Shown: positions 5,932 through 60,300 of the stretch, piece after piece
Numbering within the stretch: position 1 is the stretch's first letter
Layout of the letters: each line of letters begins with the position of its first letter
Assembly (NCBI GenBank): GCA_934163035.1
Contig: CAKPJX010000002.1
Span: 13,977-77,976 of the forward strand
DNA from: an uncultured Bacilli bacterium
GTDB taxonomy: Bacteria > Bacillota_I > Bacilli_A > RF39 > UBA660
DNA length: 64,000 bases
Direction: 5' to 3'
Program-made: the position numbers and the translations under genes
Notes under the pieces: model-generated
What the model saw: only the letters and a program-made list of their open reading frames with translations
Database searches by the model: none
What the model was told of the DNA's origin: nothing

Positions 5932-6579
5932 CTAATGTCCTTTCACATTTTTTTCAAGCCATTCGTATAAATATTTGTCTTTAAATGCATGTGATGAAAG
6001 ATAATGGTTATCACCTTTAATAATTTTTAATTCAATATTTGCTGCCCCAATATTCTTTAATTTATTGTAAGCAGTTATACTTTGATTTACATCCACAACA
6101 TCATCATTATCTCCATGATAAATTAAAATAGCCTTCTCTTTTATTGGTAATAAAACTCGATCTAGTGGAAGCATTATACCACCTGCTACTGAGATGATAC
6201 CTTTAAATAAATTAGGTCGCTCTATTATATAATTCCATGCTCCATAGGCTCCCATACTTGAACCAAGTACAAAAATATTATTTTTGTCAAACTCAAAATT
6301 TTTATACTCAATCTCTAACACTTTTTCAACATCTCTCAAATGATAATCCCAAAAATTGTTTTCATGACATTGAGGTGCTATTACTATATATGGAATATCA
6401 AACTCATTCAAATATTTGGGCAAGGCATATTTTTCAATATCAGCCAAATTGTTTCCTCGTTCCCCTATTCCATGCAAAAAAACTAATACTGGCATATTCT
6501 TTTTAACAACATTTGGATAATAAACATAATATTTGAACATCTCTTCATTAAAATTTATTTTTTGACTTTGTTTCAACAT
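5932..6579 (-). CDS. alpha/beta-hydrolase fold esterase (phospholipase/carboxylesterase-like)
   Basis: VLVFLHGIGERG oxyanion region and a GSSMG nucleophile elbow (GxSxG). Downstream Asp/His in HGDNDDVV and GDNHY. Confidence 0.6.
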   Translation of the reverse strand: MLKQSQKINFNEEMFKYYVYYPNVVKKNMPVLVFLHGIGERGNNLADIEKYALPKYLNEFDIPYIVIAPQCHENNFWDYHLRDVEKVLEIEYKNFEFDKNNIFVLGSSMGAYGAWNYIIERPNLFKGIISVAGGIMLPLDRVLLPIKEKAILIYHGDNDDVVDVNQSITAYNKLKNIGAANIELKIIKGDNHYLSSHAFKDKYLYEWLEKNVKGH

Positions 6580-6731
6580 TTTAAAACTCCTCTACTTAAA
6601 ATTTTAGATTTATATTATTTTAAATTCCATACTCATCTCTTAGTATTTCCTCTATATAAATATCAAACTAAAAATATTATATCATAACAAGCTTACATTC
6701 ATATACAATGACTACCATTTTTCTAGTAAAT

Positions 6732-7433
6732 TTATAATATTATCCAAATAAAAAGATTAATATTATAGTAAAATTTATACACGACTTTATTTGTATTAAC
6801 TAACCAAAACTTATTTTTAGTATTTTCTCTAAGATAATCTTCATATATTGATGAAAATTCTAATATTTTAGGATGATTAACAACTAACTCTCTAGCAATC
6901 ATTGTCATATCATGAGCAGTTGAATAATGACCATCTTGATCAAGACCAGTACAATTTTTAAATTGTGTATTTTTAAGCCCTAAACTCTTAACTTTTTTAT
7001 TCATTAATTCTACAAATTTCTCTTCACTACCACTAATAACTTCAGCCATTTGAACAGTAGCATCATTACCACTAGCCATTGATATACCCTTCATCAATTC
7101 CTTAATAGTAATCTTTTCACCCTCACTGATATATATTTGTGAGCCACCCATATCAGCAGCATTTTTACTAACTGTTACAACATCATCCAATTTAATTTTA
7201 CCACTTTCAATATTTTCTAGTATTAATATTTGTGCTACCATCTTTGTCATAGATGCTATCGCAACTTTTTCATTAATATTTTTCTCATATAATACTTTAC
7301 CTGTACTGGCCTCTATCAACATCCCACTAACAGCATTAGGTATAGGATCATTAACCTTACTTTCTTCAGCAAATACAAACAAAGGATTAAATATATAAAC
7401 ACCTAAAATAATTAACACTAATATTTTCTTCAT
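6732..7433 (-). pseudogene. D-alanyl-D-alanine carboxypeptidase (peptidase S11, DacA/PBP5-like), C-terminally truncated
   Basis: Signal peptide, SxxK (ASMTKM), SxN (SGND) and a conserved FKNCTGLDQDGHYSTAHDM block are present. The ORF stops about 60 aa early, before the KTG motif, and no downstream frame restores it. Confidence 0.5.
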
Positions 7434-7520
7434 GATAACCTCCTAATTTCTTTTATGACATACACTTAAAAAATATACATAAATTAAATATTTAATACTA
7501 TGATTTAGTAAGGTGATATA

Positions 7521-8354
7521 ATGAATCAAAAACACAAGATAATACTTACTTACATAATATGTATAATTATAATAATGACAAGTCTAATAATAGGTATTAA
7601 AAAAGTAGCTTGCAAAAGAAATTCAAAAAAACAAGAAATAAGTATTAAACAAAAGCCATCATATTACAAAGAAGAATATAAAAAAAGATATACTAATTAT
7701 CAAAAAAAGAATAAAAATTTATCTAAAGATCAAGTAATTATAGATGTAAATATAGGTCTAGATTATAATTATTATGAAAATACAAAACCATCTAAAAATT
7801 TAAATAAAGAAACCATCTTAGTAAATAAATACAACTATTTAAAAGAAAATTATATTCCAAACAATTTAGAAAATATAAATATTAAATATGCTAGAAGTGG
7901 TATGAGTCTAGTCAACTATGCAAAAAAAGCTTTTGAATCACTAGCAGAAGCTGCTAAAAAAGATGGCATGAACATAATAACCATGTCATCATATAGAAGT
8001 TATAAATATCAATACAATTTATATAACAAATATAAAGAACAAGATGGAAAAGAACTTGCTGATACCTATTCAGCAAGACCAGGTTACTCTGAACATCAAA
8101 CAGGCCTTGCTATAGATGTATATAATGGCGAAGAAACATTTACCAATTTTGAAAACACAAAGGAATTTAATTGGATGCAAGAAAATGCATACAAATATGG
8201 TTTTATTTTAAGATTTCCAAAAGATAAAACAAGAGAAACAGGATATAATTATGAATCATGGCACTATAGGTATGTGGGTATTCCTATCGCAACATATATA
8301 CATAAAAATAATATAAGTTTTGAAGAGTACTATATAAAAAAAATTGAAAAATAA
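7521..8354 (+). CDS. D-Ala-D-Ala carboxypeptidase, VanY/peptidase M15B family
   Basis: N-terminal transmembrane segment plus an M15 core: SYRSY ... ARPGYSEHQTGLAIDV ... ESWHYRY (zinc-binding His/Asp/His pattern). Confidence 0.75.
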   Translation: MNQKHKIILTYIICIIIIMTSLIIGIKKVACKRNSKKQEISIKQKPSYYKEEYKKRYTNYQKKNKNLSKDQVIIDVNIGLDYNYYENTKPSKNLNKETILVNKYNYLKENYIPNNLENINIKYARSGMSLVNYAKKAFESLAEAAKKDGMNIITMSSYRSYKYQYNLYNKYKEQDGKELADTYSARPGYSEHQTGLAIDVYNGEETFTNFENTKEFNWMQENAYKYGFILRFPKDKTRETGYNYESWHYRYVGIPIATYIHKNNISFEEYYIKKIEK

Positions 8355-8939
8355 CTACTTTTCAACTCTTTTATCATACCTTTTAAAATATTTATACAAA
8401 TTATAGAAAAATGTAAATAAAAACCACATAACAAATAAAACATTACTAACTTGAACCAACGATAAAATAGAATTATTACTATATAAATCAATAGTACTAG
8501 CTAAATCAATTTTATTATATGAAATGACCGAAATAAATAAAAAGAATAGTAAGTTAAATAATGTAAATACTACATAATTAAATATCTTTTTAAAGTCTGT
8601 TATCTTCTTACTAAAAACAGTAATCATGAGTATAGTAACTACTAAAATCTCCATATAGAAATAAACAACAGTAGATGGAAAATAAATATATTTTAGAATT
8701 AGTTTAAGGACTTTATCTATACAGTAACCAGTATAATCAAGATTAAAAATTATTAGTAAGACTATAAACATTGAAAATATTGCCAATGTGAAATAATTAA
8801 TTACTTTTTCTTTTTGTTTTATATTAAGGATAGATATAACTAAAAAAAAGGTGCATAGTAAGAATAATTCTATTCCAAGAAAAGATGAAAATGTTGTTTT
8901 AAAAACACTAAATATCTTATCTAAAATAGATAAATTCAT
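8355..8939 (-). CDS. hypothetical polytopic membrane protein
   Basis: 194 aa, 5-6 transmembrane helices, no recognisable motif. Lies downstream of the sortase gene. Confidence 0.3.
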   Translation of the reverse strand: MNLSILDKIFSVFKTTFSSFLGIELFLLCTFFLVISILNIKQKEKVINYFTLAIFSMFIVLLIIFNLDYTGYCIDKVLKLILKYIYFPSTVVYFYMEILVVTILMITVFSKKITDFKKIFNYVVFTLFNLLFFLFISVISYNKIDLASTIDLYSNNSILSLVQVSNVLFVMWFLFTFFYNLYKYFKRYDKRVEK

Positions 8940-8965
8940 ACTAACACCTCCACTAACACAGCAAC

Positions 8966-9652
8966 TTATGAAACCAATTCTCCAACAAATACGGTTTGTT
9001 TAGTATCATCAAACTTAGTACAAGTAATAAGCGTTAAAGTGGTTGCATTATAATTTCTAACAATTCTAACAGTTCCAACTTTAGGAACATCATATATATT
9101 GACCAGAACATAGTGATAAGTATTTCCAGCATAAGTAACATACATATCAGTACCAATTGTCATTTTATATAAATTAGAAAAATATGCTGTATAAGCATTA
9201 CCTGAATGACTCATTAAAATTAAATTACCATTAACAACATCAGGCATACTAGATTTAGCTACAACAGCCACATTATAATCAATACTATTATATTTTGAAT
9301 CAGTTCCGTAAAAACCCCTTTTTAACCTTAAACTTGGTATTTCTAAAACCCCAAGATACTTACTATAATCAATTGGTTTATAAGTATTATCACCTGAATT
9401 ATTAGTACCATCACCATCAACATTATTAGCAATAGGTACATTATCAATAATATCCTCTCGAATGTTATTATTAGTATTGTTTGCCAAAGAAATAGCAACC
9501 AACATGTCAGAGAAAACTTCCTTTTTAATCTTTAAAAGATGATTAAAAGACAAAATAGATAAACCAAAAAATACAAGCAAAGAGCCAAATAATAAAATAT
9601 GACTCTTTTTAAATTTACTATTAATTACTTTCTTTAGGTTTAATATTTGCAT
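8966..9652 (-). CDS. sortase (cysteine transpeptidase)
   Basis: N-terminal transmembrane anchor, conserved His (LILMSHSG), the TLITCT active-site Cys motif, and Arg in VRIVRNY. Confidence 0.8.
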   Translation of the reverse strand: MQILNLKKVINSKFKKSHILLFGSLLVFFGLSILSFNHLLKIKKEVFSDMLVAISLANNTNNNIREDIIDNVPIANNVDGDGTNNSGDNTYKPIDYSKYLGVLEIPSLRLKRGFYGTDSKYNSIDYNVAVVAKSSMPDVVNGNLILMSHSGNAYTAYFSNLYKMTIGTDMYVTYAGNTYHYVLVNIYDVPKVGTVRIVRNYNATTLTLITCTKFDDTKQTVFVGELVS

Positions 9653-10928
9653 AAACTATACCAACACCACAAACTAATATAACAAGACCAATGAAATATA
9701 TAATTTGTGAAGTATTCATACCAGTGTTAGGTACTTCAGGGACATAGTCAAATTTAACTGAGAAAGGTATACTCTTAGACATTGAATTAACATCAACACC
9801 AACAATCTTTTGTTTAGCAGCGTCACCTTCTAAAAATTCATTTGCACTTTTATCATAAGCCATATATTCATAACCAACATATTCGTATCCATCAGATAAA
9901 AATTCTAAGTCTACATTAGCACCATTGCTATCAACCGAGTCAACAGGAACTCTTACATAAAATTTAGTATTAAAATCATAATATTTATTCTCATCAATAG
10001 CTTCGCCTTTTTCACCATAAACAATTACTGCACCATCTGGTGAAGTTTTGTCATTTATTTTAACTTTAAACTTTTCAGTACTAGTATTACCAGCAGTAAC
10101 TGTAATAGCAGAAGATTGATAATATTTACCATCTTCAGTTAAAGACACATCTGTACCACCTGAAACATTAAGTTTAGGTGCTGTATCGTCAGAAGTAGCA
10201 TTCATTGCTGCATCAACCAATGGTTTAACATAAGTAGTATAATAATTACAAGATTTTCCATCCCTAAGACACACTTTTTCTTCACTACCAATATTTATTT
10301 TGGTAAAACTCTTTCCAGGTTTACCAGTTGCTAAATATTTTTCTTCATAATCTGAAGAATTAGTTGCTTTAGTTTGATACAAATAATCCCACAAAGCCAA
10401 TTGAGTAATTACAGCTCGTTCTGTAAGACTAACAGTCTTCATGTCCTTATCATTATATAAAGAAGAAGCTTTATCATAATATCCATTTGCTAAAATATAT
10501 AGTACAGAATATGTCTTAGCAGAACCACCTAATTCTGAACTATCTTTTTTCCAATTTTTATAGTTTTTATAAAAAACATTAGTATCTGCTCCAATATTAT
10601 TTTCTAAGCAAAAAACTGAAGTACCATATACCTTATTTACCCAAAACAAACCAACACCAGCCTTAGAACTACCATTTTCAATAGTAACAATAGGATCACC
10701 AGTAATTAAAGTAAATTCATCCCCAAGACCATTTACAGATGGAACAGCAGCCCAAGATGGATTATTAAAGCTTGTTGCTACAAATGCAAACACTGCTACT
10801 ATTGCTATTAAAACAGAAGCAGTAACAATTCCATTTCCTTTTAGGAAACGATTTGTGGTAGACTTTTTATTATTATTATTGTCTTCCATATAAATTTTTT
10901 CCATATTAAACACCTTACCTTTATACAA
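9621..10928 (-). CDS. sortase-anchored surface adhesin with thioester domain (TED) motifs
   Basis: Signal/transmembrane segment. FCLE ([YFL]C-phi-x) and TQLALW (TQxA-phi-W) thioester-domain signatures. C-terminal VPNTG sorting signal plus a hydrophobic segment and a KPKESN tail. Confidence 0.65.
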   Translation of the reverse strand: MYKGKVFNMEKIYMEDNNNNKKSTTNRFLKGNGIVTASVLIAIVAVFAFVATSFNNPSWAAVPSVNGLGDEFTLITGDPIVTIENGSSKAGVGLFWVNKVYGTSVFCLENNIGADTNVFYKNYKNWKKDSSELGGSAKTYSVLYILANGYYDKASSLYNDKDMKTVSLTERAVITQLALWDYLYQTKATNSSDYEEKYLATGKPGKSFTKINIGSEEKVCLRDGKSCNYYTTYVKPLVDAAMNATSDDTAPKLNVSGGTDVSLTEDGKYYQSSAITVTAGNTSTEKFKVKINDKTSPDGAVIVYGEKGEAIDENKYYDFNTKFYVRVPVDSVDSNGANVDLEFLSDGYEYVGYEYMAYDKSANEFLEGDAAKQKIVGVDVNSMSKSIPFSVKFDYVPEVPNTGMNTSQIIYFIGLVILVCGVGIVYANIKPKESN

Positions 10929-10966
10929 TTATTATATCATAAAAGAATAATTTTCAAACATATTTT

Positions 10967-12193
10967 TTAATTTATTGTAAAAATACCATCAAAGTCTCTA
11001 TTAGAATCACTATCTTTTTTATAGATAGTTGCAATAACATCTCCTTTTGCTACTTTATCACCAACTAATTTATTTAAATAAATTCCAACACTATAATCAA
11101 TTTTATCTTCCTTACTCTCTCTACCAGCACCTAAACTAACAGAAAGTTTGCCTAACTTCAAAGCGTCAATATTTTTAACAATCCCATCCCTATCAGCAAA
11201 AATTTCTTGTTTATTATTGCTAACAGAAAGACTATCAATATCTCCACCTTGACATTTAACCATTTCTAAAAATTTATTATAAGCTTTTCCATTATCTATA
11301 TTTTCTATGACTAATTTTTTAGCTTCTTCATATCCTATATTTTTTCCCATACTAACCATTTCACTAGCCAGTTCAATACATAAGTTTGTTAAATTATTAT
11401 TGCCATCTTTATTTTTTAGTACAGATATAGCCTCTAAAACTTCCAAACTATTTCCAATAGCTCTTCCTAAAGGAACATTCATATCACTAATTTTAGTTCT
11501 AACCTCGCGACCATAAAAATTTCCTATTTTTATCATTAGTTCACTTAACTTTTCAGCATCTTTCATTGACTGAAGTAGTGCACCATCACCAACTTTTATA
11601 TCTATTAAGATTTTATCCGCACCAGCTGCTATTTTTTTACTCATAATACTAGATGCAATTAAAGGAATTGATGAAACTGTTGCCGTAACATCTCTTAGCG
11701 CATAAATTACTTTATCTATTGGTACTAAATTAGCTGTTTGACCTGTTACAACAACACCTATATTTCTAACCTGTTCTAATACTTCATAATCACTTAAATC
11801 TATTCTAAATCCTTTAATACTCTCTAATTTATCGATGGTACCACCAGTATATCCCAATCCTCTACCACTCATTTTAACAACAGGTACACCTAAGCTAGCA
11901 ACTATTGGAGCAATAATCAAAGTAGTCTTATCACCTATTCCACCAGTTGAATGCTTGTCAACTTTTATTCCATCAATATTAGAAAAATCCAAAACATCTC
12001 CACTTTCAATGAAAATTTTTGTTAATGCAAATACCTCATCATCATTCATTCCATTTATACAAATAGCCATCAATAAAGATGACATCTGATAATCCTTTAC
12101 ATTACCATTTAAATAACCATTAAATATAAAATAGATCTCATCATAACTAAGTGCTAAGCCTAATCTTTTTTTATTAATAATATCTACAATCAT
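10967..12193 (-). CDS. pdp: pyrimidine-nucleoside (thymidine) phosphorylase
   Basis: KHSTGGIGDKTTL phosphate-binding loop and a glycosyltransferase family-3 fold of about 400 aa. Confidence 0.9.
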   Translation of the reverse strand: MIVDIINKKRLGLALSYDEIYFIFNGYLNGNVKDYQMSSLLMAICINGMNDDEVFALTKIFIESGDVLDFSNIDGIKVDKHSTGGIGDKTTLIIAPIVASLGVPVVKMSGRGLGYTGGTIDKLESIKGFRIDLSDYEVLEQVRNIGVVVTGQTANLVPIDKVIYALRDVTATVSSIPLIASSIMSKKIAAGADKILIDIKVGDGALLQSMKDAEKLSELMIKIGNFYGREVRTKISDMNVPLGRAIGNSLEVLEAISVLKNKDGNNNLTNLCIELASEMVSMGKNIGYEEAKKLVIENIDNGKAYNKFLEMVKCQGGDIDSLSVSNNKQEIFADRDGIVKNIDALKLGKLSVSLGAGRESKEDKIDYSVGIYLNKLVGDKVAKGDVIATIYKKDSDSNRDFDGIFTIN

Positions 12194-12615
12194 ACAAGTT
12201 CCTTTCTAAATATATCAGAATCTCTAATAGTAAATCCCATGTCTTGATATAGTTTTCTTGCTTCATTTCTAAACCAACTAGAAGTAAGTTGAATATACTT
12301 TGCTTCACGAGCTTTAGCAAGATCAATTGCCATATTTAACATTGATTTAGCAATACCATTATTACGGTAATTTTTTAAGACGCATACATAATCAAAAAAA
12401 CAGATAACATCATTGGTTACAAAATCCCTCATAAAAGTAATTAACATATAACCGACAATCATATCATCAGATGTAGTTACTATCTCAATATGATTATCAT
12501 CTGAATTATCTTTTGTCTTTTCTATTGAAAAATTCTCTTTAAGTAACCTATTTACCCCAAATAAATCTTCTTTTCTATAATATCTTATATAATACCTTAT
12601 ATTCATACTCCTCAC
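12190..12615 (-). CDS. GNAT family N-acetyltransferase
   Basis: Acetyl-CoA binding motif NYRNNGIAKSML (R/Q-x-x-G-x-G/A). Confidence 0.7.
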   Translation of the reverse strand: MRSMNIRYYIRYYRKEDLFGVNRLLKENFSIEKTKDNSDDNHIEIVTTSDDMIVGYMLITFMRDFVTNDVICFFDYVCVLKNYRNNGIAKSMLNMAIDLAKAREAKYIQLTSSWFRNEARKLYQDMGFTIRDSDIFRKELV

Positions 12616-12713
12616 CTACTATAAAGTATACCATAAAAAAGAAGACTTTTTCAAAAAAAACAAATTAAATAAAGAAGGTAATTATATTAAATACTTTACC
12701 TTCTAAATAATAA

Positions 12714-13040
12714 TTAATTATCTCTCTTACTAGATAAAAATGTCACCTTCTCTGCTACAATATCCATAACATAACTCTTTTTGTCTTCATTTTCTATAAC
12801 TCTAGATTGAATTCTACCCTTTATTCCTACAATGTCTCCTTTCCCACAATATTGTGCTGTATTAGATGCAACATTTTCGAAAGCTACACAATCAACAAAA
12901 TCTGTATCATATGTTCCATCCATATTTTTAAAACTTCTAGGTATAGCTAATGATATTGTAGCAATCTTTTTTCCAGATTCACCTTTATTAATTTTAATAT
13001 TTCTAGTAAGTCTTCCAACCAAAACCACCTGATTTAACAC
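12714..13040 (-). CDS. ssb: single-stranded DNA-binding protein, short SsbB-like form without an acidic tail
   Basis: OB-fold (VVLVGRLTRN ... FVDCVAF). The likely true start is a GTG at 13038-13040, preceded by a perfect AGGAGGTGA RBS (MLNQVVLVGRL). The ORF-track start at 13091 is probably over-extended. Confidence 0.7.
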   Translation of the reverse strand: MLNQVVLVGRLTRNIKINKGESGKKIATISLAIPRSFKNMDGTYDTDFVDCVAFENVASNTAQYCGKGDIVGIKGRIQSRVIENEDKKSYVMDIVAEKVTFLSSKRDN

Positions 13041-13197
13041 CAAATCACCTCCTCTCGAAAACATAATATTAATAATTATCATTTTTTTCAAATGAAGAAT
13101 TTAACTAATTCAAGTAAAAATTTTGTCAAAAAAAAAGAAATTCCTTCTAAGAAAAATTTCTTTTTATAATCATAATAATCATCATTTAACAACTTTG

Positions 13198-14520
13198 CTA
13201 CAAATTTCTTTTTATTAACTGATTTAACTCAACTGCATATTCCATAGGTAATTCATCTCTAAATTTTTCCAAAAATCCAAGTATTATTAATTCCATTGCT
13301 CTTTCTCTATTTATTCCCCTACTCATTAAGTAAAATAAATTCTCTTCACTTATTTTTGAAACTGTCGCCTCATGTTCAATACTACTACTAACGTTGTAGC
13401 AAGAGTTAACTGGAATAGTATCACTCTTAGATAATTCATCTAAAATAAGAGTATCACATTTAACATCACTAACACTATTTGTAGCTTTTGTATCAATAAG
13501 CACTTTCCCTCTATAAGTAGCATTACCACCATTATTAGAAATACTCTTAGAAATAATATTACTCTTAGTATTTTTACCCAAATGAATCATTCTAGCTCCA
13601 CTATCTTGTTCTTGTCCATTAGAAGCAACAGAAATAGTTATACATGTACCTTTAGAATTATCACCCTTTAATACACAGCAAGGATATTTCATAGTAACCT
13701 TACTACCAATATTACCATCAATCCATTCCATAGTACCGCCATCATCAACCAAAGCTCTTTTAGTAACCAAGTTATAAACATTAGTAGCCCAGTTTTGAAC
13801 AGTTGAATATCTACATTTACTATTTTTACCAACATATATTTCAACAACTGCAGCATGTAAAGAAGATTCGCTATAAGTTGGAGCCGTACATCCCTCAACA
13901 TAATGTAGCTGGCTATTATCATCTACTATTATTAAAGTTCTCTCAAACTGTCCCATATTACGACTATTAATTCTAAAATAACTCTGTAGTGGTCTATCAA
14001 GTGTCGTATTAGGAGGTACATAAATAAAACTACCTCCACTAAAAACAGCCCCATTTAAAGCAGCAAATTTATTCTCACTATTACTTACAATTTTACCAAA
14101 GTATTTTTTAACCAAATCAGGATATTCCTTCATTGCCACTTCAACAGATGTAAAAATAACCTTTTTTTCAGTAAGTTCTTTAAGCATATTATGATAAATT
14201 ACTTCACTCTCATATTGAACTCCCATACCACCAAGATGCTTTTCACTTTCTAGTACTCCCAAAGAATCAAGTTCATCTTTAACAGGCTTTAAAACATTAT
14301 TCCAATCACTTTGAATCTTATCATCCATTTCATTTGATTTATAATAAATTATCTTATTAAAATCTAAATCAATATTAGGTCCAAAACTAGGCATATCAAG
14401 TTTTTCAAACTTACTATAACTATCAAGTCTAAAATCTTTTATCCATTCATCTTCTCTTTTTACTTTAGAAATTTCACAAATATTATTTTTATTTATTCCG
14501 ATAATTTCCACAAATATCAC
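13198..14520 (-). CDS. sufB: Fe-S cluster assembly protein SufB
   Basis: HYVEGCTAPTYSESSLHAAVVEIYV ... conserved SufB core; last gene of the sufCDSUB cluster. Confidence 0.9.
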   Translation of the reverse strand: MIFVEIIGINKNNICEISKVKREDEWIKDFRLDSYSKFEKLDMPSFGPNIDLDFNKIIYYKSNEMDDKIQSDWNNVLKPVKDELDSLGVLESEKHLGGMGVQYESEVIYHNMLKELTEKKVIFTSVEVAMKEYPDLVKKYFGKIVSNSENKFAALNGAVFSGGSFIYVPPNTTLDRPLQSYFRINSRNMGQFERTLIIVDDNSQLHYVEGCTAPTYSESSLHAAVVEIYVGKNSKCRYSTVQNWATNVYNLVTKRALVDDGGTMEWIDGNIGSKVTMKYPCCVLKGDNSKGTCITISVASNGQEQDSGARMIHLGKNTKSNIISKSISNNGGNATYRGKVLIDTKATNSVSDVKCDTLILDELSKSDTIPVNSCYNVSSSIEHEATVSKISEENLFYLMSRGINRERAMELIILGFLEKFRDELPMEYAVELNQLIKRNL

Positions 14521-46087: not shown

Positions 46088-46657
46088 ATGAATTATCCTA
46101 CAGGAACTAAAAAGGGGACACAAAAACAAACAATTACATATAACAATAGAGGAATGCTTCTAGAAAGTGAAATAAATATATCTAATGAATATTATAGAGA
46201 AAAAGATAAAGCATATATTTATAAAAAACCAACACCAATAAAAATAACAAAAGTAGATTATCCATCAAGAGAAAAAGCAATAATAAAAGAAGCATTTTTT
46301 ACTGTACCATCAACTACTGATTATAATGGCATTTATAAAGGAAAGTATATAGACTTTGAAGCAAAAGAAACAAAAAGTGATACAGCTTTTGCTTTAGCAA
46401 ACATTCATCCCCATCAAATAGAACATTTAAAAAACATTAATAATCATCAAGGAATTGCTTTTCTAATCATAAGATTTACTAACTTAAATAAAACATATTT
46501 ATTAACTGTAGAAAAACTAATAGATTTTTTAAATAATGAAAAAAGAAAGTCAATACCTATAAAGTATTTTGAAAACAATGCCTATTTGATTAAAGAGGGA
46601 TACATCCCAAGAATTGATTATCTAAATATAGTCGATAAAATTATTGGAGGTAACTAA
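46088..46657 (+). CDS. recU: Holliday junction resolvase RecU
   Basis: RecU/PrfA core (YIDFEAKET ... FLIIRF ...); upstream of, and overlapping, ponA as in Bacillus. Confidence 0.9.
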   Translation: MNYPTGTKKGTQKQTITYNNRGMLLESEINISNEYYREKDKAYIYKKPTPIKITKVDYPSREKAIIKEAFFTVPSTTDYNGIYKGKYIDFEAKETKSDTAFALANIHPHQIEHLKNINNHQGIAFLIIRFTNLNKTYLLTVEKLIDFLNNEKRKSIPIKYFENNAYLIKEGYIPRIDYLNIVDKIIGGN

Positions 46658-49496
46658 TATGGAAAAGAGAAAAATAAAGAAAAGAACGGCAAAAAGTCCA
46701 TCAGGACGAAATAATAATAAAAATGTAAAATCTAAAGTAAATGTAAGTAAAACAGCAAAAGATAATAGCACATTAAAAATGATAATGGCAATAATCTTTA
46801 TAATGCTAATTCTATTCTGCTATTTCGCATTAAATTTAACATTTGCCATAATAGTAGCATTAGGAATCGGAATCATTATAGGAGTTGCAGAGCTACTAAA
46901 AAAATTAGGAAATAAAAGAAAGCTTATAAAAGTATTACTAATAATAATACTTGGCTGTGGAATATTAGGATTATCAGCATTTGCTGGATTCTTAGTTTAC
47001 ATCAAAGTTAAAGCTGATCCAATGTTTGTAAGTTCAAAGCTTGAAACTCCAGAAAATACCACTCTGCTTGATATTGATGGTAAAGAATATGCAAAATTAG
47101 GATCAGAAATGAGAGAAAAAGTCAAATACAATGAATTACCTGAGGTATTAGTTGACGCCATAGTTGCAACAGAAGATTCAAGATTCTTCCAACATAATGG
47201 TTTTGACGCTCCACGTTTTATAAAAGCCGCTATAGGTCAAGCACTTGGAAAATCAGATGCTGGAGGGGCTTCAACACTATCAATGCAAGTTGTTAAAAAT
47301 AGCTTAACAGATGCCAGTGCTACAAAAGGTGCCGAAGGTATAATCCGTAAATTTAAAGATATTTATTTAGCTGTTTTCAAGTTAGAAAAAAAATATACCA
47401 AAGAAGAAATCATTGAATATTATGTAAATAACCACTACTTAGGAGGTAATGTATATGGTGTTCAAGAAGCTGCAGAGGCCTACTTCGGCAAAACAGTAAG
47501 TGAATTAAATTTAAGTGAAGCTGCTATTTTAGCAGGAATGTTTAAGTCCCCAATTGCATATAGACCAACAGATCATGCAGAAAACGCTACAAAAAGAAGA
47601 AATACAGTACTATATTTAATGAGAAAACATGGCTATATAACTGAAGAAGAAGAAAAAATAGCTAAGTCAATATCAGTAGAATCGCTTGTAACAAACAATA
47701 CATCAGCTGTAAATAGTCAATACCAAGGTTATATAGATACCGTAGTAAAAGAAATTGAAAAGAAATATAAAGTAAATGCTTATACTACACCTTTACTTGT
47801 ATATACAAATCTAGATCGTGGAAAACAAGATGCCGTAACTAGAACTATTAATGGAGAAACATTCACATGGATTAATGATAAAATTCAATCTGGTATATCA
47901 GTTCTTGATTCACAAACGGGAAAAATACTTGCCATAGGAAATGGGCGAAATATAGGTAGCCGTTCAGCAAGCGGAATAAAACAATTTAACTATGCCACAG
48001 ATATAAAAAGACAACCAGGATCAACTGCAAAACCATTATTCGATTATGGTCCAGGTATTGAATATAACAACTGGTCTACTTACACATTATTTGATGACTC
48101 ACCTTATACATATTCAAGTGGCCAACAATTAAACAACTGGGATGGTGGCTACTTTGGTACTATAACCTTGAGAAGGGCATTATCAACATCACGTAACGTA
48201 CCGGCACTAAAAGCTTTCCAACAAATTGATAACAAAAAAATAATTGAATTTGTAACAAATTTAGGAATTAAACCTGAAATAGAAAATGGAAAAATTCATG
48301 AAGCTCATGCCATAGGAGCATTTACTGGAACAAATCCGTTACAAATGAGTGCTGCTTATGCTGCATTCTCAAATGGTGGATATTATAATGAACCATACAG
48401 TGTTAGTAAAATAGTTTTCAAATCAACTAACGAAGTCAGAGAACATAAATCTGAAAAGAAACAAGTTATGTCTGAGGCTACAGCCTTCATGATATCAAGT
48501 GTATTACAAGATGTTTCACTATCAGGAGGAGCAAACCTAGAAAATATAGCCCGTAAAACTGGTACTACAAACTATGACGCAAAAACTGCAACTGAAAAAA
48601 ATCTACCATGGGACGCAGTTAGAGATTCGTGGCTAATAGGATATTCAACCAAAACAGTAATAGGATTATGGTATGGATACGATTTTGTTGACAGAGAATA
48701 CTGTCTACATAACATTCCAGCAACAGTTCAAAAAGATAAATTATTTAGAGCCCTAGTAAATGCCGGAGCCATGGAATCAAATAGAGAACCATTCACTCAA
48801 CCAGACAGTGTTGTAAAGGTTGGCGTTGAAATGGGAAGCAACCCAGCTAAAATAGCAAGCCCAGGATCTTCAAATGTAGTTTATGAGTACTTTAAAAAGG
48901 ATTATGCTCCAGAAGAAACATATGTAGAACAAAAAATAGCTAAACCAGATAAACTTAAAGTATCATATGATGAGTCAACAAAGAAAGTAAGTATGAGTTG
49001 GAATGCCGTTACAAAACCAACTATCGATGAAAAAAATCCTGGAACATTTGGCTATAATATATACTTAGATAATACGCTGATAGCCTTTACGGATAAAACA
49101 AGCTATACATTCACGCCGAAATCATCACCGTATGGAACATATAAAGTCATTGCAACATTCAAAGGATATAGTGGCATCCAAAGTGAACCGGCAACATATA
49201 CTCTAAGTAATAATACAGCAGAAAATAACTTTGATATAACAAAATACAAATTAGTATATAATGGTAAAACAACTATTGCAGCAAACTCTACACTAATGAT
49301 AAATATAAATAATTTTGAAGTTAAAAATTCAACAGAAACATTAAATGTCAAATTTAAAAATTGTAGTCTAACCCAGGTTAATACAGCTGGTAAGTATCCA
49401 ATAACATGTACATTTGAATACAATAAAAAAGAATACAGTCTTTCAACAACTATTGAAGTAACAGAAGATACCGAAGGACCTGAAACTACAGAATAA
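46644..49496 (+). CDS. ponA: penicillin-binding protein 1A (bifunctional glycosyltransferase/transpeptidase) with a C-terminal fibronectin-III-like extension
   Basis: Signal anchor, GT51 motifs (EDSRFFQHNGFD, GGASTLSMQ), transpeptidase STAKP (SxxK), SxN and KTG, and a long C-terminal beta-rich extension. Confidence 0.9.
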   Translation: MEVTNMEKRKIKKRTAKSPSGRNNNKNVKSKVNVSKTAKDNSTLKMIMAIIFIMLILFCYFALNLTFAIIVALGIGIIIGVAELLKKLGNKRKLIKVLLIIILGCGILGLSAFAGFLVYIKVKADPMFVSSKLETPENTTLLDIDGKEYAKLGSEMREKVKYNELPEVLVDAIVATEDSRFFQHNGFDAPRFIKAAIGQALGKSDAGGASTLSMQVVKNSLTDASATKGAEGIIRKFKDIYLAVFKLEKKYTKEEIIEYYVNNHYLGGNVYGVQEAAEAYFGKTVSELNLSEAAILAGMFKSPIAYRPTDHAENATKRRNTVLYLMRKHGYITEEEEKIAKSISVESLVTNNTSAVNSQYQGYIDTVVKEIEKKYKVNAYTTPLLVYTNLDRGKQDAVTRTINGETFTWINDKIQSGISVLDSQTGKILAIGNGRNIGSRSASGIKQFNYATDIKRQPGSTAKPLFDYGPGIEYNNWSTYTLFDDSPYTYSSGQQLNNWDGGYFGTITLRRALSTSRNVPALKAFQQIDNKKIIEFVTNLGIKPEIENGKIHEAHAIGAFTGTNPLQMSAAYAAFSNGGYYNEPYSVSKIVFKSTNEVREHKSEKKQVMSEATAFMISSVLQDVSLSGGANLENIARKTGTTNYDAKTATEKNLPWDAVRDSWLIGYSTKTVIGLWYGYDFVDREYCLHNIPATVQKDKLFRALVNAGAMESNREPFTQPDSVVKVGVEMGSNPAKIASPGSSNVVYEYFKKDYAPEETYVEQKIAKPDKLKVSYDESTKKVSMSWNAVTKPTIDEKNPGTFGYNIYLDNTLIAFTDKTSYTFTPKSSPYGTYKVIATFKGYSGIQSEPATYTLSNNTAENNFDITKYKLVYNGKTTIAANSTLMININNFEVKNSTETLNVKFKNCSLTQVNTAGKYPITCTFEYNKKEYSLSTTIEVTEDTEGPETTE

Positions 49497-55687: not shown

Positions 55688-55725
55688 ATAAAAAGCTTTC
55701 CATAATAGGTATGGAAAGCTTTTTA
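55688..55725 (-). terminator. intrinsic terminator of the cadherin-like surface protein gene
   Basis: 14-bp hairpin AAAAGCTTTCCATA ... TATGGAAAGCTTTT overlapping the stop codon, followed by a T-run on the minus strand. Confidence 0.6.
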
Positions 55726-57339
55726 AATTGTTTCTAATTGTTCTTCTTTATTATTATCATTATTCTTCTTAGCTAGTACAAATAATACTACTGATATTAA
55801 AACTAAAACAATAAATATTATATATGGTAATATTCCGATACTACTCTTTTTCTCAACAGTTATTTTATACGTCTTAGTTGTTCCATCTTCTGCTGTTACT
55901 ATTATAGATATAACACTTCCATCTTTTAGATTACTGTTACCATCTATTTCATAACTTGCTTTACTATCACTACACTTAGCTTTTATATTAAGTTTATCTT
56001 CTTTTATCTTTACTTTATAATTATATGTATTAATATTAAATTCTAACTTATATCCATCAATAGTTAATTCCCTTAACTTATTATTTGAAGATAACTTAAC
56101 ATTTTTTTCTTGTCTAATTACAGTTAATCTATAACTCTTAACATCACCATTTTCTGCTGTTACTAATATCTCAAATAAATTCTCTCCTACTTTTAATTTC
56201 TTATCCCCTTTTATTTCTGTCTTTGCCCTAGAATTATTTAAGATTGCATCTATTGTTATATTCTCATTCTCATATGGTACTTTTATTTCATATGCAGTTT
56301 TATCATTTGAAACGCTTACTACACCAGTTGATAATTTAATTTCTTTTAAGGTATTATCCTTACTTCTATCATCTTTTCTTGTCACCTTAATAACATAAGT
56401 TCTTACATTTCCATTTTCAGCTTGAACACTTATTTTTATAGTATTTAAACCATAAGCCAGACTAACATTCATCGATTTACTTCCAGCAGTGTATTTTGAT
56501 TTAGCATCTGTTAAGTTAGAAGTAACTTTAATACTACTAACATTTGAATCTACATCTAAACTATACTCATTTTTACCTGGAGTAAAATTAATCTTACCAG
56601 GACTTAACGTTAAACTAGACAAAGTATTAACTGAACTTCTATTATCCGGTCTATTAACCTTTATTGTATAAACACTCCTATTACCTGCTTCTGCTACTAC
56701 AGCTATATAAAATGTATTCATTCCATAATTAAGGTTTTTAACCCCTAAACCATCTACTCTACCAACTGCTGTTCCAGATATAGTAATACTTTGAGAATTA
56801 GTAGTAACCGAATATACTGTTGTTGAAGGATTAAAACTAGGACTCAATGTTCCACCACTTACTGATAAAGAACTTAAATTAGAATCAGTTGATTTAGCCG
56901 CTATAGATCTAGAAACATCACTCTGAGATCTTTCTACATAATTTTCATCACCTAAACTAATACCAGTGATATTAACACTGCCACCACTAAACCCATTTCC
57001 AGCCTTTACTGTAAAACTTCCTATTGCTACATTACCAGTAAAAAGATTTTCTCCATAAAGTATAAACATACCGCCATTCTGTTTATCACCTTGCCATCCA
57101 GAAGCAATATTATAATTACTTATTTCTAAATTACTACCAACAACCTGACCAGTAAACGAAACAAGAGCACCACTAGATACAGGAACACTAATGCTACAAG
57201 TAGTTGATTCACCAGGAGCCAGCTTTGAAGCACCACAATTTAAGTTTACACTAGCACTTAAAGCATCAGCACTAAAAGGCATTAAAAACACTAAACCTAA
57301 AATAAACAATATCTTTTTTTTCATAATTACCTCTCTCAA
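55723..57339 (-). CDS. membrane-anchored cell-surface protein with about 4 cadherin-like beta-sandwich repeats
   Basis: Signal peptide; repeated LSSLSVSGGTLSPSFNPSTTVYSV ... VYTIKVNR-type modules (cadherin-like beta-sandwich domain); C-terminal transmembrane anchor and charged tail. Confidence 0.6.
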   Translation of the reverse strand: MREVIMKKKILFILGLVFLMPFSADALSASVNLNCGASKLAPGESTTCSISVPVSSGALVSFTGQVVGSNLEISNYNIASGWQGDKQNGGMFILYGENLFTGNVAIGSFTVKAGNGFSGGSVNITGISLGDENYVERSQSDVSRSIAAKSTDSNLSSLSVSGGTLSPSFNPSTTVYSVTTNSQSITISGTAVGRVDGLGVKNLNYGMNTFYIAVVAEAGNRSVYTIKVNRPDNRSSVNTLSSLTLSPGKINFTPGKNEYSLDVDSNVSSIKVTSNLTDAKSKYTAGSKSMNVSLAYGLNTIKISVQAENGNVRTYVIKVTRKDDRSKDNTLKEIKLSTGVVSVSNDKTAYEIKVPYENENITIDAILNNSRAKTEIKGDKKLKVGENLFEILVTAENGDVKSYRLTVIRQEKNVKLSSNNKLRELTIDGYKLEFNINTYNYKVKIKEDKLNIKAKCSDSKASYEIDGNSNLKDGSVISIIVTAEDGTTKTYKITVEKKSSIGILPYIIFIVLVLISVVLFVLAKKNNDNNKEEQLETI

Positions 57340-60300
57340 TCTAATGAATCAATTCTCTTTTTAACAAAACTATACATCTTAGATACATCAACAGCAGATA
57401 TTTTTCCATCACCAGTAACATCACTAGCTAACAAATAATAGTCTTCACTAATGTTTATCCTCTTCCTAATGTGACTATATACCTTAGATACATCAGCAGC
57501 AGTTACTTTTCCATCTCCATTAACATCGCCCATAATAATATTCTTTATCTCTAATACAACATCACTATTCTTCATTATTTTAGTAATACTACCTGTAAAC
57601 ACTAAATCATCTTCTCCAAGCAATTTATTTTCTAAATCATATACTGCTATACTATAATCTTTTCCAATATCAAATTTAGTTAAATATTCTTTTAATTTAG
57701 TATTAGGCTTAATATTTCTTAGATAATTATTACTATCAAGTACATAATCTTTTATTTCATAGTCAATATCAAGTTTCCAAATAGCATACAATATAATATT
57801 TTCATCATTGGAAGTAATATTATTAATTATTTGTTGATCTTTATATGATTTACCAGTTCCATCTGCCTTTGTGTTCCACTCCTTAAAGTAATAACCCTCC
57901 ATAACAAATGCATTTTTATTCAATGCAGCTTCTGTATCATAAATAAACTCTTGACTATCCATTGTACCAGAAGCCCCATTTGGCATAAATGCAATAGTAT
58001 AGTGAATAGGTACATACTGTGCATACAAGGTAATTACATCACCATCAGTAGCAGATAAATTAATAAGCTCTTTACTTACAGAATAGCTACTACCAGTTCC
58101 ATCTGCCTTTGTATTCCAAGAATTCAAAATATATCCCTTTTTAACAAATTTATCCATTGATACTTTTTTTGATTCATCATATTTAAGAGTAATATCAGAA
58201 AGTTCACCAGAAGTTCCATTATTATCAAATTTTACAGTATAACTAATAGGTGACCATATAGCATACAAAACTATTGTTCCATCACTATCAGCTAAGTTAT
58301 ATATTTCAGCCTTATCTTTATAACTATCACCGGTTCCATCTGCTTTTAAGTTCCATTCAACAAATGAGTATCCCACTTTAGTATAAGTATTTTCATTTAA
58401 GTTAACAATATCATCATAATTTAAAATCTGGTTAGGCATTTCACCTTCGCCACCATTACTATTAAATTGAACAGTGTATTGAATTGGCACCCATTGTGCA
58501 TATAAATAAATTATACTGCCATCTTTATCTGTTAAGTTAAAAATATCATCACCATCATTATATACAGAACCAGATCCATCAAGCATCGTATTCCAACCTA
58601 TAAATTTATATCCTTCTTTTGTATAAGCATTAGCTACTAAACTAGATTTAACATCGTATTTAAATATTTGATTAGGCATCTCACCAACAACATCATTACC
58701 AACAAATTTTATCTCATAGCTTATAGGAACCCATTGAGCATATAAAGTTATTGTTTCATTCTTATCTGTTAAATTTGTAACTATCCCTTTATTAGAATAG
58801 TTCTCTCCAGTACCATCAGCCTTTGTATTCCAACTTGTAAACTTATATCCTAATTTAGTATAGGTATTAGTATATAGCTGTTTAGCAATATCAAACTCAA
58901 AAATTTGATTAAACATCTCGCCTTCGCCACCATTAGGATTAAAAGTCACTTCATACCCAGCTATCATCCATTGAGCATATAGAGTAATATCTCCATCAGC
59001 ATCTAAAATATTCAAAACTTCAGCTTCATCATCATATGAAGTTCCACTTCCATCAATCATTGTGTTCCAACCTATAAATGTATAGCCATTATTTGTAAAT
59101 TTATTTTTTTCTAAATGATCAACTTTATCATAAGTAAGATGCTGATTTAACATTTGTCCATCTCCACCATTAGCATCAAATCTAACTTCATATTCAATAG
59201 CTTCCCATTGAGCATATAGGACAAGTGTTGCATTCTTATCAAGTAAATTAGATACTTCGCTATTATCATTATAATAGTAGCCCGTTCCATCGGCCTTTGT
59301 ATTCCAATTAACAAAATTATAACCATATTTAGTAAACTTATTAAAAGACAAATTATACAGATGACCATATTCAAAAACATCATCAGACATTTCGCCTTCG
59401 CCACCATTACTATTAAATTGAACAGTGTATTGAATTGGCACCCATTGTGCATACAAAGTAATACTAGACTCTCCATAATAATTTATATCCTCTAAATTAG
59501 CATTATCAGAATAGATATCACCATTACCATCGGCATTAGTACACCAAGAGGAAAAAGTATATCCTACCCTTTCAAACGAGTTACTATATAATTTTGAAAG
59601 ATTTTCATAAGTAAACGATTGATCTGGCATTTGGCCATAACCACCATTACCTTCATATCTAACAACATAATTAATAACTTTCCACTGTGCATATAAAACA
59701 ATAACAGAACCATCAACATCAGTTAATTCTCTAACATATTGTTTATCATCGAAAGCATCGCCAGTACCATCACTTTTTGTATTCCAACCAACAAATCTAT
59801 ATCCCCTTTTCTCATAAAGATTGCTGCTCAAATAAGCATCATCATTATACGCTAAAACCACATCATCCATAGTACCTAGTCCACCATTACTATTATATCT
59901 AATAGTATAAGTAATAATTGTCCATTGAGCATATAGAGTAACAGTTTCATTAGTAGTCAAATTTTTAACAGTAGCTTTGTCATTGTAACTAGTACCAGTA
60001 CCATCACTTTCTGTATTCCAACCTGTAAACTTATATCCCTTCCTAACAAAAGTGTTATCTGGTAATAAAAATTCTTGATCATAATATACTTTAAAGTCGC
60101 CAATTGAACCACTTCCAGCATTATTATCATAAATAACAGTATATTCAATAGCTTCCCATTGAGCATACAAAACAATAGTCTCACCAGCTAAAGCAATATT
60201 TTCAATTTCAGCATTACCTGCATAAGAATCACCACTTCCATCTTGAGCAGTATTCCAACCAACAAATTTGTAACCACCCTTACTGAAAATATTAGACTTC

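Follow-up and report, generated by a model that had tools for sequence, protein, structure and literature searches.

How does an uncultured gut bacterium of the RF39 lineage make, anchor and use a surface protein that carries a thioester domain (TED), when the sortase encoded beside it lacks an arginine described as indispensable to sortases? The question is raised by a minus-strand locus in a stretch of 64,000 nucleotides (nt), here called the window, on contig CAKPJX010000002.1 from an uncultured Bacilli bacterium (G+C content roughly 27%). Two open reading frames (ORFs) overlap there by 32 nt: 9621-10928, which encodes 435 amino acids when read from a TTG codon, and 8966-9652, which encodes 228. 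A sequence-only reading of this DNA had described the two as a TED adhesin and its sortase. We found that the pair is real, as both proteins match their Pfam families above the cut-offs, and that a third gene accompanies it. The overall picture that we consider probable is of a self-contained three-gene operon whose products build and install the only sortase-dependent surface protein of the cell. The genes are as follows.

9621..10904, minus strand: TED surface-protein gene, 427 amino acids, stop codon included; 326 homologues in a word-indexed search
8966..9652, minus strand: sortase gene, 228 amino acids; Pfam Sortase match and barrel model
8355..8939, minus strand: membrane-protein gene, third of the putative operon, 194 amino acids

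Residue numbers refer to the 427-residue TED protein, and adding 8 converts them to the 435-residue numbering of the earlier reading. Loci were compared through a scan of one genome per species, which gave 124 relatives; the best 80 loci were compared, all from metagenome-assembled genomes of animal or human guts.

The surface protein has a class II-like thioester domain

The Pfam TED family PF08341 matched residues 105-192 of the 435-residue ORF with 29.6 bits against a cut-off of 22 (E = 9.5e-7). The NCBIfam TQXA_dom model stayed below its cut-off (17.2 versus 30.4), and a search of PDB sequences with the single TED sequence returned nothing relevant. We aligned 298 non-identical homologues of the protein and built an AlphaFold2 model on 80 homologues, with a mean predicted local distance difference test score (pLDDT) of 81.7, a predicted template modelling score of 0.71, and pLDDT values mostly of 85-96 for residues 61-390. 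In the model, a helix at residues 25-45, the signal-peptide core, is followed by a beta-rich region (63-117), helices (131-234), about eleven strands (245-385) and a C-terminal helix (398-420). Foldseek comparison with the PDB gave four matches at E <= 0.001, all of them to the class II TEDs EfmTIE86-TED (6FWY, 7.6e-13) and BaTIE (6FWV, 5.4e-11); none of the 50 matches listed (E up to 0.2) is a class I TED. The model also shows class II traits: an alpha-0 helix is missing between strand D and helix 1, and its sandwich lies between helix 3 and the strand that bears the glutamine. The domain and its motifs lie as follows.

9741..10727, minus strand: class II-like thioester domain, residues 60-388, modelled as a head (beta-barrel plus helices) with an inserted beta-sandwich (AlphaFold2, Foldseek)
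10602..10613, minus strand: FCLE, a [YFL]CΦζ motif at the end of strand 96-99; Cys99 (10608-10610) is the predicted thioester cysteine
10389..10406, minus strand: TQLALW, the TQxxΦW helix motif (Gln168, Trp172), within helix 160-177
9801..9815, minus strand: KQKIV, a ΦQζΦΦ-type motif; Gln365 (9810-9812) is the predicted thioester glutamine, from conservation and co-loss with the cysteine

Which glutamine closes the bond? FCLE and TQLALW had been proposed as the two halves of the thioester. Both are present (residues 106-109 and 175-180 in the 435-residue numbering), as are VPNTG (399-403) and, in the second ORF, TLITC. The motifs also recur in the homologues: Cys99 is retained in 295 of 298, Gln168 in 297 and Trp172 in 296, and the threonine of the sorting signal in every one. 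In class II TEDs the cysteine lies on strand C within [YFL]CΦζ (PMC6194298; the motif is defined in PMC4450167), and the bond-forming glutamine lies on strand Q within a weak ΦQζΦΦ motif, which in this class follows the beta-sandwich inserted behind helix 3 (PMC6194298). The glutamine and tryptophan of TQxxΦW adjoin the thioester but are dispensable (PMC6194298, PMC4450167). By analogy with these proteins, TQLALW is best read as a TED hallmark that adjoins the bond, and its glutamine as one that does not form it. The published role of the motif thus removes the glutamine half of the earlier proposal. It also means that the check offered with that proposal, adjacency of Cys and Gln in a predicted structure, would have passed for the wrong residue, as the TQLALW glutamine adjoins the bond.

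We instead predict a thioester between Cys99 and Gln365 (Cys107 and Gln373 in the 435-residue numbering), in a class II-like TED with an enlarged sandwich. This prediction draws on the class II fold, the motifs and the co-loss of the two residues. Gln365 is retained in 296 of 298 homologues, mostly as xQ[KT][IV][VIST]. Its position, past the sandwich and where strand 367-385 begins, is that found in class II TEDs, and the preceding loop has pLDDT values of 92-96. Both losses of Gln365 (Q to D in P0464, Q to P in P0493) occur in two of the three sequences that lack the cysteine (Fisher p = 6.8e-5), and in both Cys99 is replaced by asparagine. A profile of the family reached solved TEDs only weakly (E about 0.01) and over the TQ helix alone, so the bond-forming glutamine could not be placed from the profile. 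We also considered a class I reading with Gln263 (KYYQS) as the bond partner, which the spacing from helix 3 would fit. We rejected it: Gln263 is retained in only 249 of 298 homologues and is replaced in 49 members that keep the cysteine, its association with cysteine loss is not significant (p = 0.07), and the fold is that of class II alone.

P0464 and P0493, two independent family members that have lost the thioester cysteine together with Gln365, both keep the TQ motif, the sandwich and a full sorting signal.

No stalk domain was found: the last strand reaches residue 385, the sorting motif follows from 391, and no CnaB or other stalk family of Pfam matched. As modelled, the ectodomain is essentially one TED, and the absence of a stalk would place the reactive head close to the wall surface. 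The label 'adhesin' is one that we infer from characterised TEDs.

The sorting signal is almost confined to one protein family

The two ends of the TED protein carry the following elements.

9720..9734, minus strand: sorting motif VPNTG, residues 391-395, 6 residues past the last strand of the domain
9624..9707, minus strand: C-terminal membrane segment QIIYFIGLVILVCGVGIVYAN (9645-9707) and tail IKPKESN (9624-9644), from the family alignment
10749..10904, minus strand: long signal peptide, residues 1-52, with a hydrophobic core at residues 25-45 and a signal-peptidase-I-type site SWA/A, from alignment conservation and the model helix
10884-10904, minus strand: conserved N-terminus MEKIYME, from the family alignment

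The C-terminus has the tripartite form of motif, hydrophobic segment and charged tail. It scored just under the cut-off of the anchor model TIGR01167 (15.3 versus 15.9), and its motif is not LPXTG. The peptide that spans VPNTG, in the Abz/Dnp substrate form, is YVPEVPNTGMNT. Across the 298 homologues the consensus is xP[D/N]T[G/S]. The first residue is Val, Ala, Ser or Thr and never Leu, the proline is kept in nearly all, the third position is Asp in 258 and Asn in 28, and the last is Gly in 216 and Ser in 74. The sequence-only reading had pointed to VPNTG as a departure from the canonical LPxTG. The departure stands, but the motif by itself is not new, as V-P-x-T-G signals are known from streptococcal pili, including VPDTG in RrgC.

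The conservation extends well beyond the motif. Tyr403, Phe404 and Gly406 occur in 298 of 298 homologues, and Gly413, Gly415, Tyr418, Asn420, Lys422 and Pro423 in 287-297, which gives a near-invariant helix and tail of the form Q-x-x-Y-F-I-G-L-x-x-L-L-C-G-V-G-I-x-Y-A-N-x-K-P. Such near-invariance is unusual for a sorting signal. We scanned the last 44 residues of the protein with HMMER/phmmer against 1.84 billion representative proteins, a search that would miss substrates with a different helix, and obtained 225 matches, of which the best 150 listed are 39-458 amino acids long. Seven of the nine matches inspected were members or fragments of the TED family. These data indicate that the C-terminal signal is almost confined to this family, which argues for a system of one enzyme and one substrate family. 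The other two matches (P0376 and P0421) carry the family sandwich and C-terminal signal behind unrelated N-terminal halves, with no TED head; they may be chimeric contigs or rare swaps of the head or domain. Within the 64-kb window we found no further sortase or sorting signal.

At the other end, cleavage of the signal peptide would occur at the SWA/A site. The first residues follow the pattern MEKIY[M/I/E][E/D/N] in about 260 of 298 family members while their synonymous codons vary, which indicates that it is the peptide that is under selection. MEKIY was found at the start of no further protein of the window or of the fetched loci. The element is possibly a secretion-targeting motif, and it is comparable in position to the YSIRK-type motifs of other sortase substrates.

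Dual coding, translation and a third gene

The codons of the substrate helix also hold the start of the next gene. Two further features concern expression.

9621..9652, minus strand: overlap of the TED and sortase genes, 32 nt
10931..10957, minus strand: promoter-like element, TTGAAA (10957-10952), a 15-nt spacer and an extended -10 TGaTATAAT (10939-10931)

The ATG of the sortase (9652-9650) is made from the TED codons for Tyr418-Ala419 (TAT GCA), and its ribosome-binding GGTGTTGG from the codons for Gly413-Val414-Gly415. The arrangement is general: an overlap of 26-38 nt occurs in 81 of 81 loci, with the ATG invariably within the YAN codons, and across the 81 genomes TAT GCx yields the ATG and GGN GTN GGN yields a Shine-Dalgarno-like run. 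Because the ribosome-binding site, start and first codons of the sortase are embedded in this segment, they explain part of the conservation of the substrate helix (GVGIxYAN..KP). Dual coding is thus probably one reason why GVGIxYANxKP in the substrate and MQMLN at the N-terminus of the sortase hardly vary; it does not account for the upstream half of the conserved helix. As the sortase starts inside the last codons of its substrate, its translation may be coupled to that of the TED protein, and the two would be made in step.

Upstream, the sequence TTGAAA-N15-TGnTATAAT, followed by a purine-rich, AAGGTAGGGTG-type ribosome-binding site and then ATG GAR AAR ATH TAT, precedes the TED gene in 79 aligned loci. 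This conservation indicates that the TED gene has a promoter-like element of its own, which sits directly past the stop codon of the upstream pyrimidine-nucleoside phosphorylase gene (pdp) and would function as a promoter. The element also bears on the length of the substrate, which had been given as 435 amino acids. The ORF is present, but TTG 10928 lies only 3 nt past the conserved TGaTATAAT box and would therefore fall at the very beginning of the transcript or ahead of it; we rejected it as an artefact of ORF calling. A Shine-Dalgarno-like AAGGTAAGGTG stands 6 nt upstream of ATG 10904, the codon at which the public copy of the protein (P0001, MEKIYMED..., 427 amino acids) starts. The true start is almost certainly this ATG, and the length becomes 427. 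Within the 5' coding part of the TED gene (10831-10851, minus strand, NRFLKGNG codons) there is a hairpin that resembles a terminator and has a weak T-tail, probably by chance. An Rfam scan of 6000-13500 matched no RNA family.

A third gene starts 26 nt past the stop codon of the sortase, with its own GGAGGTG ribosome-binding site, and ends back-to-back with a convergent VanY gene; the terminator scan found no convincing terminator 3' of it. A hydropathy scan predicts five membrane helices in its 194-residue product, and conserved motifs are FSSFLSIE, NYIYFPST, FSKKxxxFKKIFNY and LVQVSN. The single sequence matched no Pfam or NCBIfam model, Pfam searches with 35 members gave nothing consistent, and public records name the protein merely 'hypothetical protein'. 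In 78 of 80 genomes its gene comes right after that of the sortase, with products 35-51% identical to that of the window and 80% in the closest relative, and its place in the operon is well supported. As a speculation, the protein may help to present the substrate helix or the acceptor. From the layout we infer that the unit is not a pair but a co-transcribed operon of three genes, for the TED protein, the sortase and the membrane protein, with its own promoter.

The sortase has glutamine in place of the catalytic arginine

The second protein matches the Pfam Sortase family PF04203 (52.8 bits against a cut-off of 26.6, E = 4.3e-14), and Foldseek gave 138 sortase-type matches in the PDB at E <= 0.001, the best at 2.6e-9. 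Its structural model (mean pLDDT 68; about 70-88 in the catalytic domain) contains beta4 (143-148), beta7 (205-211) and beta8 (218-226) of the sortase barrel, and the protein ends right after beta8. Class C, class D and streptococcal class A structures matched equally well (about 3e-9; template modelling scores of 0.56-0.80, normalised to the target). The class models of NCBIfam all stayed far below their cut-offs (class C 52.5 versus 160, SrtD 33.7 versus 140, class D 30 versus 165, class E 24.6 versus 160), the other class-specific sortase models gave no match at E <= 0.1, and the generic TIGR01076 was the sole NCBIfam sortase model passed (43.6 versus 39.35). Four features of the protein matter here.

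9542-9604, minus strand: N-terminal membrane helix, residues 17-37, from the model; a disordered linker and the catalytic domain (residues ~95-228) follow
9206..9208, minus strand: His149, directly past beta4, invariant in alignments
9020..9034, minus strand: TLITC signature with Cys211 at the end of beta7, invariant in alignments
8996..8998, minus strand: Gln219 at the start of beta8 (K218-Q219), the position of the catalytic arginine in other sortases, from alignments and the model

In S. aureus SrtA the catalytic arginine is Arg197, at the start of beta8. A HMMER alignment places Gln219 opposite the arginine of B. anthracis SrtA, and a MAFFT alignment with S. aureus and B. anthracis SrtA shows no arginine at the beta8 position. 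The substitution is not peculiar to the window. In 81 of 81 loci a glutamine follows the cysteine by 7-8 residues, in the pattern TC-[TN]-[KRN]-x4/5-Q-[TS]-[VIF]-[YF]; arginine occupies the position in 0 of 81 loci, and no conserved lysine does. Gln219 is likewise invariant in 83 sortase homologues (54-82% identical to the window sortase), as are His149, Cys211 and 39 further positions, an invariance that indicates strong purifying selection on the enzyme. Among the invariant residues, Arg112, Lys191 and Arg199 are specific to the family. By alignment, Arg199 lies in the beta6/beta7 loop that lines the signal-binding groove of S. aureus SrtA, and one may speculate that it could pair with the aspartate of the motif or replace the missing arginine. 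The protein is thus a sortase by fold, cysteine and histidine, fails the defining arginine and falls outside the curated classes. Sortases are all said to carry a His-Cys-Arg centre in which the arginine is indispensable (PMC8225981; a 2026 study, PMC13257024). A limited literature search found nothing on a sortase family without it.

Does such an enzyme still cut and transfer its substrate? If the sortase were weakened or inactive, it might act as a retention or folding partner or as an endopeptidase, and the TED protein would be membrane-anchored or released. The glutamine in every member, at a site supposed to need arginine, would fit this explanation, as would a substrate helix and tail conserved far beyond ordinary sorting signals and the TIGR01167 score just under its cut-off. 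Set against these points are the invariance of His149, Cys211 and TLITC, an enzyme about 55% identical between genomes in which the substrate is about 30% identical, and the retention of the scissile-site threonine in 298 of 298 substrates and of the proline in nearly all; a dead enzyme would not hold motif and nucleophile so tightly. Part of the helix conservation is, moreover, accounted for by the overlapping sortase start. We therefore judge an inactive enzyme improbable and favour a working, sortase-dependent anchoring system.

The class of the enzyme bears on a second alternative, in which it is a pilus-type polymerase that joins TED subunits, or the TED protein and another protein, through a lysine into a short fibre, either in place of anchoring to the wall or ahead of it. 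Pilus loci also combine substrate and sortase in one operon, and the best NCBIfam score and several of the top profile and structure matches are with class C. The signals agree as well, as VPDTG is that of pneumococcal RrgC and V-P-x-T-G occurs in group A streptococcal pili. The class C model, however, reached 52 bits against a cut-off of 160, and class A and D structures match equally well. The protein ends after beta8 and has no hydrophobic segment C-terminal of the catalytic domain. There is a single substrate gene, its product has neither a YPK pilin motif nor an E-box (ET.AP), and the window holds no second, housekeeping sortase. Polymerisation of this kind seems to us very improbable, and anchoring of single TED proteins is the reading that we retain.

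The operon is a syntenic core feature of the lineage

The 80 genomes compared are labelled uncultured Bacilli, Tenericutes, Mollicutes or Mycoplasmatota and come from human, chicken, rabbit, goat, sheep and deer. They include Candidatus Faecimonas, a member of GTDB order RF39, family CAG-611, with a genome of ~1.4 Mb and 28% G+C (PMC8035907). The gene order is the same in 80 of 80 loci: GNAT, pdp, TED, sortase, membrane protein, VanY (reverse) and S11 carboxypeptidase. The sortase was found in all 80 of these loci and the 194-residue membrane protein in 78; SSB and SufB are frequently upstream. Relative to the window, the TED protein is 28-35% identical (67% in the closest genome), the sortase about 55%, pdp about 70% and SufB about 84%. 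Constant synteny together with a divergent TED indicates a core feature, inherited vertically, whose exposed domain evolves fast, and not an accessory island. Together, family, fold, synteny and the single-substrate evidence agree with the core of the sequence-only reading, that of a TED surface protein beside a dedicated sortase with a signal other than LPxTG. We found no literature linking thioester domains to RF39 or Tenericutes.

This distribution raises the question of what the protein binds. Its target may be not a host molecule but an amine on another bacterium, on a dietary particle or on the envelope of the cell itself, an explanation compatible with the anchoring mechanism proposed here. 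For a dependent organism with a reduced genome, the protein would then serve attachment between cells, syntrophy or cross-linking of the envelope. The operon is a core feature, present in single copy and constant synteny amid wall-maintenance genes, in 80 genomes from many host species, a pattern unlike that of typical accessory, host-specific adhesins, and the absence of a stalk keeps the head near the wall. There is precedent in a class II TED that mediates contact between bacteria in pLS20 conjugation (PMC8092201), and thioesters also react with small polyamines. The pace of change in the head (28-35% identity, against about 70% for pdp) argues the other way, since it is expected of a domain that tracks variable external ligands. 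We consider a non-host target rather unlikely on this evidence, and the proposed mechanism below names a host or partner-cell molecule.

Several neighbouring genes deserve mention. An S11 D-Ala-D-Ala carboxypeptidase, short at 233 amino acids (6732-7433, minus strand), and a VanY-type carboxypeptidase (7521-8354, plus strand) flank the operon; both are syntenic with it in most genomes, which hints at an envelope-processing neighbourhood. A class A penicillin-binding protein is encoded farther along the window (46644-49496, plus strand), which means that the organism makes peptidoglycan. The wall predicted for most RF39 contains meso-diaminopimelic acid (m-DAP), and RF39 keeps sortase genes, which its sister orders do not (PMC10868615). 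Near the end of the window, 57336-63443 (minus strand) encodes a 2035-residue protein with a papain-like C1 peptidase, 11 Listeria-Bacteroides repeats, a Big_2 domain and a C-terminal type I dockerin, and the next gene (55723-57339, minus strand) encodes three cadherin-like domains. Both products are large, belong at the surface or outside the cell, and carry no sortase signal. The presence of a dockerin in an RF39-like genome implies that a partner with a cohesin exists somewhere.

Comparison with characterised systems

The closest known counterparts of the TED protein are the class II TIE proteins BaTIE (6FWV), EfmTIE86 (6FWY) and SaTIE of S. aureus (6FX6). They share with it the cysteine motif, TQxxΦW, a glutamine after the sandwich, the lack of alpha-0 and a sortase-type C-terminal signal. 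Sequence identity is merely 13-15%, however, and the sandwich is larger in the window protein, with ~130 residues from helix 3 to the glutamine against an insertion of ~75 in class II TIE proteins. Unlike TIE proteins, the window protein has no isopeptide or ester stalk domains, a linker of 6 residues, and VPNTG (family xPDT[G/S]) in place of LPxTG. Its gene belongs to the syntenic core and comes with a sortase of its own, whereas TIE genes are accessory and are served by the housekeeping sortase. Another class II TED, TIEpLS20 of pLS20, likewise serves attachment, to bacterial rather than host surfaces (PMC8092201); it differs from the window protein in being plasmid-borne, in having Cna-type stalk domains and in reportedly not being coupled to the wall by a sortase.

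Pilus systems provide the nearest parallel in gene arrangement. The FCT locus of S. pyogenes resembles the window locus in that the gene for a TED protein, Cpa, has a dedicated pilus sortase gene as its neighbour, and the locus includes sorting signals of the V-P-x-T-G type (PMC7900414). The TEDs of Cpa are of class I, and Cpa forms the tip of a polymerised pilus whose shaft and base consist of other pilins; the window locus, in contrast, has a single substrate with a class II-like TED, lacks a pilin motif, and encodes a sortase in which the arginine is missing. The VPDTG signal of S. pneumoniae RrgC (PMC5640630, PMC7899983) is identical to the TED family consensus, yet RrgC is a pilus base subunit without a TED, and the SrtC sortases are class C enzymes of the canonical His-Cys-Arg type, equipped with a lid and anchored at the C-terminus. 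For the sortase itself, the best profile matches in the PDB were C. perfringens SrtD (4D70, E = 8e-11) and S. agalactiae SrtC1 (4D7W, 3e-9). Class D and C sortases have in common with the window enzyme the barrel, the placement of histidine and cysteine, TLxTC and the N-terminal membrane anchor. The window enzyme differs in its exchange of arginine for glutamine, and the profile alignments end at or just past TLxTC, before beta8.

A model for assembly and attachment

Our results suggest the following sequence of events. One promoter would drive the TED, sortase and membrane-protein genes, and translation of substrate and enzyme would be coupled through the overlap of their genes. The TED protein would be exported by the Sec pathway on its long signal peptide, which is then cleaved, and would adopt the class II-like fold in which the predicted thioester between Cys99 and Gln365 forms spontaneously. 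The C-terminal helix would retain the protein in the membrane beside the sortase. By the chemistry of the family, Cys211 with His149 would cut VPNTG between Thr394 and Gly395, a step for which the missing arginine weakens the case. Given sortase chemistry and the predicted RF39 wall, the protein would be passed to a wall-precursor amine, probably the m-DAP side chain of lipid II. An amine of a host or partner-cell molecule could then attack the thioester and so attach the cell covalently, as in characterised TEDs.

A bolder reading, to which we give tentative and minority credence, is that of an order-wide sortase lineage with a His-Cys-Gln centre, co-evolved with a membrane partner of five helices and with a single xPDT[G/S] substrate whose membrane helix hardly varies, which plants a stalk-less covalent 'harpoon'. 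On the thin wall of the genome-reduced RF39 this TED 'harpoon' could be the main physical link to host or partner cells.

Several observations weigh against these proposals. Without a stalk and with a linker of 6 residues, the modelled head might fall short of the outside of a normal Gram-positive wall. The two lineages that lost both cysteine and glutamine retain the protein and its signal, so the protein may have a role that needs no thioester. Conservation of the membrane helix can in part be explained by dual coding and not by recognition. The model of the sortase, at a mean pLDDT of 68, is only moderately confident. Finally, as the arginine published as indispensable is absent from the catalytic position, normal transpeptidase activity cannot be assumed.

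Significance

V-P-x-T-G signals, and a TED substrate beside its own sortase, were already known from streptococcal pili. What we consider new is the lineage, the order-wide single-copy synteny, the His-Cys-Gln centre, the extra membrane protein, the N-terminal peptide and the dual-coded overlap. The overlap, in which a helix encodes the ribosome-binding site and start of the next gene, is a clean example of dual coding. More than 80 species-level sortases that bear the glutamine, with cysteine, histidine and the threonine of the cleavage site conserved, constitute a natural test of whether the arginine is indispensable. Should the enzyme be active, its specificity for xPDT[G/S] would make it a candidate tool for ligation, orthogonal to LPXTG sortases. 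If it proves to be an ordinary sortase with a compensating arginine elsewhere, the locus would still define a new TED/sortase subfamily in a new lineage, a useful if unsurprising result.

For the organism, the finding concerns an uncultured lineage that is widespread in guts, has genomes of ~1.4 Mb and is predicted to have many dependencies (PMC8035907, PMC10868615). That RF39 retains one surface-anchoring system with the same TED protein makes this protein a candidate attachment molecule, which could serve as bait for enrichment, imaging and target capture.

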